A stretch of 64,000 nt of DNA from Opitutales bacterium (GTDB taxonomy: Bacteria; Verrucomicrobiota; Verrucomicrobiia; Opitutales; UBA953): assembly GCA_040398005.1 (NCBI GenBank), contig JBBAUX010000004.1, positions 66,926 to 130,925 on the forward strand, read 5' to 3'. Positions 51,950-54,916 of this stretch are shown here, one piece after another. The notes beneath the pieces were generated by a model, which did not search any database, was not told the origin of the DNA, and was given only the letters and a program-made list of their open reading frames with translations. Made by a program: the position numbers and the translations under genes. Every line of letters starts with the position of its first letter. Position 1 is the first letter of the stretch.

Positions 51950-53497
51950 ATGTCACCCAAGTTCCGATCCATTTTCTGTGTGTTATTTTTTGCCACGACT
52001 TTGTCGGCTCGCGAGATTGTCGTTAAAAATGACATTCAATTTAAAGCCGCTTTGAGTGCGGCAGCGAGTGGTGATGTGGTTCTGGTCGAGAGCGGTACCT
52101 ATTCGAATATTGATATCAAATTCGCTCGTGCGGGAACGGAGAGTCGCCCCCTCACCGTCAAAGCCAAAGTGCCTGGAGAAGTAATTTTAAAGGGATCCTC
52201 GACCTGCGATTTTAATTTTCCATACGCGGTCGTTGACGGTTTATTCTTTTACCAAGGATCGATTAACCCGGGGGAGGGTGAAGATAATTCCGTCGTAAAA
52301 TTTAGTTCTCATCACGGTGTTTTGAAAAACACGGCGATGGTGGATTATAATCCGTCCGATTTTAAAACATCATACTACTGGGTGTTTTTCGCGGGAAGTA
52401 ATAACACGGTCGACCATTGTTACTTCAAAGGGAAAAATAATAAGCAACCGCTGGTTGGTAATGCGATTGATGAAAGTCGCTACAATGCGGTGAAGTTTTC
52501 GTATTTTAAAAATATCCCCTATCAAGTACTGAATGGGCGGGAGAATATTCGCGTGTGGGGCTCGGGTAAATTTGACGAGAAGGGGAAGGATGGAGCTTAC
52601 TTCACGGTGGAAGGAAATCTTTTTGATCACGCCGACGGCGAAGGCACCGAAATCGTTTCACTTAAGTCCAACTACAACCAGGTCTTAAATAATACGGTAA
52701 TCGCTACCGCTGGGTCTATTAATATTCGTCGCGGGTCCAATAACCTCGTGAAGGGTAACGTGATTTTAGGCCAGGGTGTTAAACAAGCTCAAGGCCTTCG
52801 GATGTCGGGTGCCAATAACACTGTTATTCAAAACTATGTTTCGGGCACCGAATATGGAATTCGCGTATCGGCGGGGGAATATATTGGGAGTGCGTTGACC
52901 CCTGATTATGAGCCCCACATCAAAGATCGGGCGGCGAGTGCTAAAAATACTGACGGTAACGTGACGTCTTATCCCCAGGTTAAAAAATTAATGTTAGCCC
53001 AAAACGTCGTGGCGAATGTGCAGGGTAGTTGTTTAGAGATGGGGTCTGGTTTTAAAAAGCACTGGCCGGCTTCGCAAATGATTCTGTTGCCCGAAGATTC
53101 GGATATTATGAATAATCGTTTTATTAACAAGGAGGCTGGTGCGGTGATCGAAGGATCTTTGCCCGATGGAAAAACCCCGATGGGTGGTATCACGACGAAA
53201 CCTAATCGTTATAAAGGTAATACTATTTTAGGAGATGGAAAAATAAATTATCCGCCCGCAGAGAACGGATTTAAAGTAGAGGCATTGCCCTCTAATTGGT
53301 CGGAGAAAAAAGAGCTCAGTAATTTTAAGGTGCTGACCGCTCAAGAGGTAGGTCCGGCTTGGGTGATTGCCTTGCGCGAAGCGAAGAAGTTTCCGATGGA
53401 AGATGATCGCTCCTGTTATCCAGCCGACGAGGGAACGAAGGACAAGGGTTCCAAGGATAAATCCGATAAATCGGATAAGACTAAGAAGAAAAAATAA
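51950..53497 (+). CDS. Polysaccharide lyase family 6 (alginate lyase/chondroitinase B-like)
   Basis: NNTVDHCYF.GKNN, NGRENIR, GEGTEIVSLKS, parallel beta-helix Asn ladders, signal peptide. Confidence 0.8.
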   Translation: MSPKFRSIFCVLFFATTLSAREIVVKNDIQFKAALSAAASGDVVLVESGTYSNIDIKFARAGTESRPLTVKAKVPGEVILKGSSTCDFNFPYAVVDGLFFYQGSINPGEGEDNSVVKFSSHHGVLKNTAMVDYNPSDFKTSYYWVFFAGSNNTVDHCYFKGKNNKQPLVGNAIDESRYNAVKFSYFKNIPYQVLNGRENIRVWGSGKFDEKGKDGAYFTVEGNLFDHADGEGTEIVSLKSNYNQVLNNTVIATAGSINIRRGSNNLVKGNVILGQGVKQAQGLRMSGANNTVIQNYVSGTEYGIRVSAGEYIGSALTPDYEPHIKDRAASAKNTDGNVTSYPQVKKLMLAQNVVANVQGSCLEMGSGFKKHWPASQMILLPEDSDIMNNRFINKEAGAVIEGSLPDGKTPMGGITTKPNRYKGNTILGDGKINYPPAENGFKVEALPSNWSEKKELSNFKVLTAQEVGPAWVIALREAKKFPMEDDRSCYPADEGTKDKGSKDKSDKSDKTKKKK

Positions 53498-53498
53498 T

Positions 53499-53750
53499 TT
53501 AACGTTGGTTGAGTTGAGTTAAAGAAGCGTGGATGATTTCGTCGCGACGACGGATGGCTTCTTCGAGTTCGGACGTGCGGAGTGAGCGTCGAATCCGCTG
53601 CGCCGTGTAATCAGCGAAGTGGAGGGTGTAGTGAATCCACCATGTCCCATTGTTGTTCCAGAGATGGTGACGGCGGTTCTCTGCGTTCACGCGCAGTGAA
53701 AGACGTGACGGAGTGACGGTGGGAAGGGAGGATGAGTCTGTGTTGATCAT
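53499..53750 (-). CDS. Small hypothetical protein (HHLWNNNGTWW motif) downstream of a riboswitch-like leader
   Basis: 83-aa ORF; W-rich strands followed by RRSLRT..LEEA..RRD helix. Confidence 0.75.
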   Translation of the reverse strand: MINTDSSSLPTVTPSRLSLRVNAENRRHHLWNNNGTWWIHYTLHFADYTAQRIRRSLRTSELEEAIRRRDEIIHASLTQLNQR

Positions 53751-53799
53751 AGCGTGTTTGGATAAAGCGACGCATCACGATCGACCCAGAAGTGGGAAG

Positions 53800-53920
53800 G
53801 ATTTGTGACCTTTCGGTCCTCATCTTAGAAACTTTCGGTTTCTAAAAACCACCGCGGCCGGTGAAGGCTCGGTTGGTGCAAAGGGGGCGGTTTGATGGCC
53901 TGCCCTTGCTCGTGATGTGT
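53800..53920 (-). ncRNA. SAM-I clan riboswitch (SAM-I/IV-like)
   Basis: P1 CAUC/GAUG, J1/2 ACGA, P2 GCAAGGG/CCUUUGC, P3 ACC-AA-CCG/CGG-U-GGU, P4 UUAGAAAC/GUUUCUAA, P5 GACC-GAAA-GGUC. Confidence 0.72.
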
Positions 53921-54085
53921 TATTAAAGAACAATTGTAGATATAAGTGTCGTTTCGAAAAAAGCAAGTCAGCGACTCTAGAACGTGTGTCATAAATTCTA
54001 AATCGAGGTTTTCTGCATGTTTTGGCTTTTATTCAAGGGGTGTTGCCAACGGTCGTCCCCCGTACTTAATCTTTATTTTTAAACC

Positions 54086-54361
54086 ATGGGCTATTTTCGA
54101 TTTCGCAAAGTCCTCTCGCTGGGTAAGTTTTTTAAAATAAATATTTCGAAGACCGGCGTGTCCGCGTCGGTTGGTCGACCGGGCGCGACGCTCAATATTA
54201 AAAAAGATCGGGTCGACGGCACGGTCGGATTGCCAGGGAGTGGATTGTCCTACAAAGAAAATTTATCGAAACGTGGATGCGCTTCGCTTTTCTTGATTCT
54301 TGGTTTGCTCGCCGTGGGCGTGGGCACGAGTTGGAAAATTCTTGGCGTACTATTCACGTAG
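54086..54361 (+). CDS. DUF4236-like small membrane-anchored protein
   Basis: FRFRK...INISKTGVSASVG...GLPGSGLSY plus a C-terminal TM helix. Confidence 0.8.
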   Translation: MGYFRFRKVLSLGKFFKINISKTGVSASVGRPGATLNIKKDRVDGTVGLPGSGLSYKENLSKRGCASLFLILGLLAVGVGTSWKILGVLFT

Positions 54362-54388
54362 TTCCAAAAATTTTCTCAATTACGCAAG

Positions 54389-54472
54389 TGCCCGGGAAAG
54401 GACTCGAACCTTCATGCCTTTAAGGGGCGGCGGATTTTGAATCCGCTGCGGCTGCCATTTCGCCACCCGGGC
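54389..54472 (-). tRNA. tRNA-Leu(CAA), CCA not encoded
   Basis: GCCCGGG/CCCGGGC acceptor stem, GCGGA-TTCAAAA-TCCGC, long variable arm, GGTTCGAGTCC. Confidence 0.93.
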
Positions 54473-54628: not shown

Positions 54629-54916
54629 TTACTTAGTTCCGAGGATCGCGTCCTTCGCAGCTTTCGCTACGCGGAATTTTACGACCTTCTTAGCTTTGAT
54701 CTGGATAGTTTCGCCAGTAGCAGGATTGCGACCGAGGCGAGCTTTGCGCTGAACGAGAACAAGCTTACCGAGACCAGGAAGCGTGAAGGAGTTCTTCGCG
54801 TTCTTGTAGGCGAGTTGAGCGATGCTTTCGAGAATCGCTACAGCTTGTTTTTTGCTGAGATCATTCTTTTCAGCGATAGCAGCAGCGACTTGGGATTTGG
54901 TGAGGGCTTTGGACAT
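54629..54916 (-). CDS. hup: HU family DNA-binding protein
   Basis: LTKSQV, LPGLGK, RKARLGRNPATGETIQI. Confidence 0.93.
   Translation of the reverse strand: MSKALTKSQVAAAIAEKNDLSKKQAVAILESIAQLAYKNAKNSFTLPGLGKLVLVQRKARLGRNPATGETIQIKAKKVVKFRVAKAAKDAILGTK

Follow-up and report, generated by a model that had tools for sequence, protein, structure and literature searches.

S-adenosylmethionine (SAM) riboswitches of the SAM-I clan (CL00012) include the SAM-I/IV variants (RF01725), which were reported from 'several phyla, marine', mostly from metagenomes (Weinberg et al. 2010, PMC2864571). In that paper, their P2 is described as free of an internal loop or kink-turn, and the machine-read figure text of the consensus drawing in its supplement carries the labels 'P4-I', 'P4-IV' and 'pseudoknot'. 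A second related system is DseA from Desulfovibrio vulgaris, a SAM-I riboswitch that precedes the gene of the small hypothetical protein DVU1170 and is reported to switch expression off in response to methionine or SAM (bioRxiv 10.1101/803072). Here we analyzed a 64-kb stretch of an Opitutales genome (contig JBBAUX010000004.1, positions 66,926 to 130,925 of the forward strand; hereafter the window, in whose coordinates positions are given unless a contig is named). On its minus strand, a SAM-I-clan aptamer closest to the SAM-I/IV type (53791-53923) precedes an open reading frame (ORF) encoding a small protein of 83 amino acids (aa) (53499-53750). On balance, we favor the reading that this riboswitch controls a monocistronic gene, whose product would be a putative nucleic-acid-binding factor similar to integrase arm-type domains and made on SAM shortage. 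In the following, the genome carrying the window (1.44 Mb) is called G000, other G codes denote the genomes of relatives, L codes denote loci, and f codes denote families in the order; the genomes of one genus are not independent of each other.

The RNA, which the original prediction had placed in the SAM-I clan, was compared with the Rfam covariance models. As a result, SAM-I/IV was indeed the best model, and RF01725 matched the leader over all 99 model positions with 35.2 bits (cmscan in E-value mode; E 6.5e-4 for the 651 bases searched and 3.5e-4 for the whole genome). This was the sole RF01725 match in G000. The gathering cut-off of the model is 41.1 bits, and a gathering-threshold Rfam run returned nothing at the aptamer position. 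Matches at the same locus were obtained in 34/36 same-genus genomes, with 27.5-41.0 bits, and in one of 24 other families of the order (G053, 44.6 bits, above the cut-off). In the cmscan alignment, the window RNA carries two insertions relative to RF01725, one being an extended P2 loop and the other a hairpin that separates P3 from the P1 3' strand, and we attribute its sub-threshold score to them. With 35.2 against 41.1 bits, the RNA is therefore filed as a SAM-I/IV-like variant of the SAM-I clan and not as a strict RF01725 member. Within this known riboswitch clan, it is a new member that stays below the threshold. The SAM-I model (RF00162, E<=0.1) and the SAM-II model (RF00521) gave no match in G000, G015, G160, G058 and G136, in genome-wide searches that did not extend to the SAM-III, -IV, -V, -VI, SAM/SAH and SAH models. 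The genome searches used a prefilter that missed known copies in G059 and G160, so that an absence means 'not found'. The fold energy of the leader has a z-score of -3.4.

The decisive evidence for the RNA is its conservation and covariation in relatives. The aptamers of 27 loci of the genus were aligned, the structure was written for them and a covariance model (R1) was built, which scores the window aptamer at 106.8 bits; 35 copies, other families included, were then aligned. In this alignment, 95.1% of the cells are in standard pairs, versus 85.6% in shuffles (0/500 shuffles reach the observed value), and compensatory changes occur in 21 of the 33 pairs. When the partners were slid by one to three columns, the pairing fell to 27-49%. 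The invariance of P1 and of the lower P3 is neutral with respect to covariation, and the covariation counts lean toward the structure because the alignment was fitted to the model. An independent MAFFT alignment analyzed with RNAalifold again showed compensation in P2 and in both the internal and the 3' hairpin. The window RNA is a genuine SAM-I-clan riboswitch aptamer, which combines a SAM-I/IV-type core with a P4-I hairpin and a 3' hairpin in the SAM-IV position.

All of the sequence features named in the original prediction are present on the minus strand. P1 is formed by CAUC (53914-53917) and GAUG (53821-53824); the 3' strand is invariant, as are three of the four pairs, and the fourth varies between C and U opposite G. 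J1/2, ACGA(G) (53910-53913), is invariant in the 27 genus sequences, and its second letter, C instead of the A of the RF01725 consensus AAGA(G), is the single exception to an otherwise invariant core (P1 CAUY/GAUG, J1/2 ARGAG, P3 CCAACC...GGUGG and the AA/U pocket). P2 (53878-53909; compensatory changes in 7/8 pairs) is short, with an internal loop of 2-3 by 2-3 nucleotides (nt) between an outer helix of 5-7 base pairs (bp) and an inner helix of 3 bp. P3 (53848-53877) reads ACC-AA-CCG...CGG-U-GGU, including the AA/U pocket, and three distal pairs are compensatory above the invariant lower part. The internal hairpin between P3 and the P1 3' strand (53825-53845), in the SAM-I position and hence comparable to 'P4-I', shows compensatory changes in 7/7 pairs. 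Outside P1, in the SAM-IV position ('P4-IV'), follows a GAAA hairpin (53807-53818), previously termed P5, with compensatory changes in 4/4 pairs and pairing in 100% of the cells. A small variable hairpin, CCCA-cuuc-UGGG (53785-53796), appears in the folds and seems possible, by eye and without a count, in other genus sequences.

The window RNA thus resembles the SAM-I/IV riboswitches in its P1-J1/2-P2-P3 core with the same conserved letters, in the full-model match, in the 3' hairpin outside P1, and in the absence of a long P2 of the SAM-I type; as in the original prediction, no kink-turn is evident. The hairpin in the P4 position is its only SAM-I-specific trait. In contrast to RF01725 members, it scores below the cut-off, has a covarying 21-nt P4-I hairpin and a small P2 internal loop, carries C in J1/2 where the consensus has a purine, lacks a detectable pseudoknot between the P3 loop and the tail, and precedes a gene that encodes neither an enzyme nor a transporter. 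The layout with both P4-I and P4-IV seems to have been seen before, since both labels stand in the machine-read text of the 2010 consensus drawing.

Some properties of the RNA weigh against this assignment. Neither the window copy nor any of the 34 same-genus matches reaches the Rfam cut-off, and J1/2 varies among the small-protein-linked copies (ACGAG, AGGAA, CAUAGA, UUUAGA, UGUAGA). In addition, PK-2, the P3-loop/3'-tail pseudoknot of the SAM-I/IV riboswitches, had not been found in the original prediction, and our own search found P3-loop/tail complementarity no better than in shuffles: the best contiguous complementarity was 2-5 bp in 29 sequences, and at least 14 of 200 shuffles were as good in 28 of them (8 in the remaining one, G028), in a test of contiguous pairing that leaves non-contiguous and tertiary contacts outside. 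The scores, the C in J1/2 and the variation of J1/2 among lineages would also fit an aptamer that has drifted to another ligand, such as S-adenosylhomocysteine (SAH) or another sulfur or methyl metabolite, which would explain both the unusual gene and the sub-threshold score. We consider such a drift improbable. The inserted hairpin and the extended P2 loop account for the low score, the other core positions are invariant, and the same C is found in a copy linked to metK.

This copy, L067 (G160:C11:25485-25613, minus strand), belongs to a sister genus and is the same aptamer variant, with the internal hairpin, the C at the second J1/2 position and an RF01725 score of 39.1 bits; a terminator follows the aptamer, and the next gene is 64% identical to the MetK of G000 over 393 residues. 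In this sister genus, the small protein was missing in 5/5 sampled genomes. The G160 copy at metK makes SAM the probable ligand of the window aptamer, and the context of the above-cut-off copy in G053, which precedes a homocysteine S-methyltransferase gene, also favors SAM.

We then investigated how ligand binding could be coupled to expression. As the original prediction had pointed out, the 5' strand of the core has a competing partner shortly before the start codon; indeed, UCGUGAUG (53780-53773) is complementary to CAUCACGA, and its end lies 22 nt before the ATG at 53750. The complete switch strand, GAUCGUGAUGCG (53771-53782), has two partners. With CGCAUCACGA, which comprises the P1 5' strand and J1/2, it forms an anti-P1 helix of 10 pairs (also given as the CGCAUCACGA/UCGUGAUGCG helix), and with UAUGAUC (53745-53751), the start codon and its flanks, it forms an alternative helix of 7 pairs (GAUCGUG/UAUGAUC). 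Among 29 genus sequences, the anti-P1 helix is formable in nearly all, with one true compensatory change (A-U in G029), and the start-codon helix is formable in 25-29, depending on the pair.

The predicted folds suggest a SAM-OFF switch, which in the genus of the window would act on translation. At high SAM, P1 (CAUC/GAUG) would close and release the downstream strand GAUCGUGAUGCG, and the freed strand would pair with UAUGAUC, burying the start codon and turning translation off. At low SAM, GAUCGUGAUGCG would pair with CGCAUCACGA, the AUG would be freed and the protein would be made. In agreement with the first state, the G000 leader folded with P1 forced has an energy of -55.1 kcal/mol and forms the AUG hairpin without its being imposed, and the same constraint leaves the whole AUG paired in 27/28 genus sequences. 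The unconstrained fold of the G000 leader has -57.7 kcal/mol and contains the anti-P1 helix.

Other results of the same calculations argue against such a switch. Neither platform helix shows real covariation, which we ascribe to the conservation of the sequence. Moreover, the unconstrained folds leave the AUG unpaired in only 10/28 sequences, and P1 is already part of the minimum-energy fold in 9/28, so that the ligand-free ON state is poorly defined thermodynamically. In these models, the OFF state is well defined, and the ON state is one that we infer. In f23, f24 and G160, a stem followed by a U run stands after the aptamer instead. At the f23 loci L066, L068 and L069, the 5' arm of the terminator contains CCUGAUGC, which is complementary to GCAUCAGG (P1 5' strand and J1/2), an arrangement that reads as the classical terminator/antiterminator version of the same logic; in these families, an intrinsic terminator would thus take the place of start-codon burial.

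Lake metatranscriptome contigs of 188-202 nt from three studies (X1, X11 and X17) cover positions 53704-53905 and span the aptamer from P2 on and continue through the expression platform into the ORF, of which they include the first 25-46 nt; all of them stop at 53900-53905. An additional 45-nt RNA piece lies at 53625-53663, and a fourth run (X3) has no contig on the region, the uncovered remainder not being interpretable. The contigs are compatible with transcription of the leader, and transcript ends and levels cannot be read from them. With respect to the promoter, the predicted TACAAT hexamer (53933-53938, minus strand) is present and may serve as a weak -10 box; it has no acceptable -35 partner, and among the 30-nt upstream flanks of the genus loci, inspected by eye, it is seen only in G000, G008 and G009. 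A simple sigma-70 scan of 53400-54100 found no promoter-like site. A simple terminator scan of the same interval found two sites, one in P3 and one beyond the ORF, and none in the expression platform.

The length and position of these contigs, covering the leader and the first codons, could also indicate that the RNA itself is the main product and acts in trans as a small RNA, with the ORF being secondary, for which the report on DseA (10.1101/803072) offers a precedent in Desulfovibrio. This is very improbable in our view. The ORF shows very strong conservation at the protein level, and it must therefore be expressed and selected; the contigs cannot show where transcripts end or how abundant they are, and the G000 platform has no terminator to release a short RNA. 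In Desulfovibrio, DseA is reported to act in trans on sahR.

The linkage between the aptamer and the small protein gene was examined in the genomes of relatives. In the genus, a conserved ATGATC start follows the aptamer after ~40-55 nt in 29/29 loci, and the small protein was found in 31/36 genomes. Its gene is monocistronic, as predicted: in the window, the lone 83-aa ORF is followed by a converging Chondroitinase_B/PL6-type gene, which ends at 53497, and the next long ORF converges in all 20 genus loci with downstream DNA among those listed. At 25 loci, mostly outside the genus, the downstream neighbors include no conserved partner. At L027 (G036:C25), the aptamer is intact and the ORF reads MINTQDTAAPAPKLSPTTSN..., with the conserved HHLWNNNGTWW stretch missing, either through an internal deletion or, possibly, through faulty assembly; the protein search gave no match in G036.

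Outside the genus, the aptamer precedes the protein gene in G058, G115 and G136 (f23) and in G059 (f24), and among further order-level loci it was detected upstream in 8/17 by Rfam and in 12/17 by a broader model of our own (R2). Relatives of the protein were found in at least 597 species genomes (one genome per species scanned). Whether homologous genes keep the fold in their leaders had been left as a check, and R2 indeed detected the aptamer upstream and in sense in 75 of the family's best 80 loci; at two of the five others, hardly any upstream DNA is available. The record titles of these 80 loci are mostly Opitutales/Opitutia, Verrucomicrobiales and Verrucomicrobiota, with some others. In G058, G136 and G115, as in G000, the aptamer linked to the small protein is the only RF01725 (SAM-I/IV-type) match found in the genome. 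The genome carrying the window is that of a freshwater bacterium, and the pairing of riboswitch and protein recurs in many of its relatives.

Family f18 departs from this pattern. It has the protein in 6/6 sampled genomes, and no SAM aptamer was detected before the protein gene in these genomes or before second copies, which counts against the favored reading. The six f18 loci (L117, L119, L120, L121, L126 and L060, in G087, G173, G133, G154, G112 and G053, respectively) have a different leader of ~230 nt with a strong intrinsic terminator at its end. The f18 leaders gave no relevant Rfam match at E<=1, and the six sequences aligned too poorly to define a structure; they may represent another, undescribed cis-regulatory RNA. 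The f18 ORF is followed on the same strand by a 3'-phosphoadenosine-5'-phosphosulfate (PAPS) reductase gene (cysH) in G053, G154 and G112, confirmed with Pfam in G053 only (E 1.1e-39), and by a sulfite-reductase-like gene, named from its translation only, in G087, G173 and G133. By their annotation, these neighbors tie the protein family to sulfur assimilation. In G000, genes of the PAPS reductase family are located elsewhere in the genome.

As an arrangement, a SAM riboswitch on one small monocistronic hypothetical gene, with the pairing conserved among relatives, is shared with DseA/DVU1170, and the window switch is proposed to be OFF, as is reported for DseA. In contrast, DseA belongs to the SAM-I family and to another phylum, and its gene has 189 nt. 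The cascade had been called undescribed. In view of this precedent, the idea of pairing a SAM riboswitch with a lone small protein is not new, and the description would hold for the protein family and for the pairing in Verrucomicrobiota, neither of which was found in the print sources searched. The literature searched likewise yielded no description of the arm-type-like fold of this family or of the wide extent of the aptamer pairing in Verrucomicrobiota, and no mention of DUF6538/PF20172.

We next characterized the 83-aa protein. A profile search of 1.84 billion representatives (50% identity level) yielded 1,032 family representatives at E<=1e-3, the best 150 of which have 69-198 aa and are all small. 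Thirty diverse members share 15 invariant columns (H28, H29, W31, N33, N34, G35, W38, R52, R54, S56, L57, T59, A65, R69 and D70), and H40 and H44 are nearly invariant. Among 434 candidates for longer or fused forms, one passed E<=0.001; it has 151 aa and no recombinase domain. The AlphaFold model (predicted local distance difference test, pLDDT, 77.7) shows a short strand (16-18), three main strands (30-33, 36-44 and 50-56) and a helix (62-82).

A resemblance to integrase arm-type DNA-binding domains, as the original prediction had proposed, emerges along three lines, all of them weak. First, DUF6538 (PF20172) matches 25/30 members at E<=0.01 (best 2e-6) over the RxRRSLxT...A..RRD stretch, with the invariant HHLWNNNGTWW outside the match. 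Second, the model has a three-stranded sheet and a helix, and the structural search, which had been suggested as a check, gave matches to the HPI integrase arm-type domain 3JTZ (Z 4.6, root-mean-square deviation 2.4 over 50 residues, 20% identity), lambda Int 1Z1B (Z 4.2) and AP2 6SY0 (Z 4.2). Third, in a language-model search, the four nearest Atlas clusters that carry a name (scores 0.90-0.91) are without exception integrase arm-type DNA-binding families. The small protein differs from the domains of DUF6538, 3JTZ and 1Z1B in that it stands alone, without a recombinase catalytic domain, and in that HHLWNNNGTWW is specific to its family. Several results speak against the arm-type assignment: the window protein itself matches DUF6538 with 19.4 bits (E 8.2e-4; cut-off 27) over residues 48-71 only, all of the fold matches have Z<=5.0 and are tied with PX, PH and other small folds, Foldseek gave no match in the PDB at E<=0.001, and the profile gave a best E of 0.51 against PDB sequences. 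The arm-type resemblance is thus plausible and not established.

These results also bear on the possibility that the riboswitch is real and the protein is no DNA-binding regulator, acting instead on another protein or binding a metal or a small molecule in sulfur or SAM metabolism; the invariant His-His...His...His and Trp residues could serve this purpose. Such a role would accommodate the invariant H28 and H29 and the nearly invariant H40 and H44, which the arm-type reading leaves unexplained, as well as the weak fold matches shared with non-DNA-binding folds, the lack of significant Foldseek and PDB-sequence matches, and the position of the f18 ORF next to cysH and sulfite-reductase-like genes. 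Nevertheless, three separate methods point to integrase arm-type domains, and the RxRRSLxT...A..RRD stretch matches DUF6538; we therefore regard a non-DNA role as unlikely, while giving it serious weight. Our preferred reading remains that the protein is a putative stand-alone nucleic-acid-binding factor, which would be made on SAM shortage and would be tied to sulfur and methionine physiology.

The surroundings of the locus are conserved as well. Upstream of the riboswitch lie a DUF4236 gene (54086-54361, plus strand), tRNA-Leu(CAA) (54388-54472, minus strand) and an HU-type gene (54629-54916, minus strand), and this synteny is kept in at least G008, G015, G023, G006, G016 and G027. The tRNA, which is located 640 nt upstream of the ORF on the same strand, together with a protein resembling the N-terminal domain of an integrase, might mark a former integration site; nothing else mobile is found there. 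Taken further, the ORF would be a decaying integrase remnant beside tRNA-Leu and the RNA match coincidental. This is hardly credible and is already contradicted by the conservation data: the family has 15 invariant columns and 1,032 representatives, its members are all small, its one longer form lacks a recombinase domain, and both the synteny and the covarying aptamer are conserved.

Finally, the proposed role of the protein as a SAM-responsive regulator was tested on the methionine genes. No Rfam match was obtained upstream of metK or the metH-like gene of G000. A conserved element upstream of metK in the genus was reduced to the 24-bp palindrome ATC-N5-ATC-N2-GAT-N5-GAT, which occurs exactly twice in G000 (~0.1 expected), before metK (G000:C10:63439-63462) and before metF, the methylenetetrahydrofolate reductase gene (G000:C2:46588-46611). 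In G058, G115 and G059, all five exact sites stand upstream of metH, metH, metF, metH and metK. Judged by these positions, the palindrome is clearly a methionine-regulon operator. Leyn et al. (2014, PMC4239095) report a 24-bp palindrome for SamR and a consensus of ATC-10 nt-GAT common to SamR and SahR. Likewise, G000 encodes a 312-aa protein with an ArsR-type helix-turn-helix and a methyltransferase domain (G000:C2:129972-130907), and its palindrome consists of ATC-N10-GAT units; unlike the targets of such a SahR/SamR-like factor, the small protein gene has no such palindrome upstream, and the two systems are separate.

Among 151 genomes of the order, the palindrome was found in 76 (reversed control, 4), the SahR/SamR-like factor in 84 and the small protein in 23. 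Palindrome and factor occur together in 67 genomes (palindrome only, 9; factor only, 17; neither, 58), and palindrome and small protein in 16 (palindrome only, 60; protein only, 7; neither, 68). No statistic is attached to these tables, because genomes of relatives do not count as independent observations. In the regions upstream of 17 small-protein loci, no more than 10 of the 12 fixed operator letters are present. The role of the small protein as the binder of the Met-regulon operator was thus rejected; the operator follows the SahR/SamR-like factor, and the regulator hypothesis did not survive in the version examined, that of binding to the metK/metF/metH operator. By virtue of this co-occurrence, we assign metK and metF, and metH in the relatives, to the SahR/SamR-like factor. 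The palindrome and the factor together look like an undescribed SahR/SamR-type methionine regulon in Opitutales, and G000 would have two separate SAM/SAH-related controls, the SahR/SamR-like factor and the riboswitch for the small protein. At metF of G000 (G000:C2:46570-46620) and of G059 (L110), only 4-6 nt separate the end of the operator from the start codon, and a TTGACA/TTGCAA-like box lies immediately upstream, which suggests that the metF mRNA may be leaderless or nearly so, with a promoter overlapping the operator.

Genes without a known function are commonly interpreted through the riboswitch that precedes them. In the present case, a conserved SAM switch leads to an unannotated small-protein family with 1,032 representatives, present in at least 597 species genomes. 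A further-reaching reading, which we put forward tentatively and hold to be possible but rather doubtful, is that the 83-aa protein is the output of a SAM-shortage circuit widespread in Verrucomicrobiota, and thus part of a true riboswitch-to-regulator cascade. Here, an integrase arm-type domain that became domesticated would be released by the aptamer and, standing alone, would bind DNA or RNA to regulate sulfur assimilation or SAM-consuming processes. If this is true, then the cascade would run in parallel to the SahR/SamR-like protein sensor in the same cell. Since metK, metF and metH appear to be under the SahR/SamR-associated operator, and since in G000, G058, G136 and G115 the only SAM-I/IV-type match found is the one at the small protein gene, the role of this protein would show what else these bacteria adjust on SAM shortage besides the classical pathway genes. 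It would also tell whether cells have turned an integrase arm-type domain into a regulator of their own.

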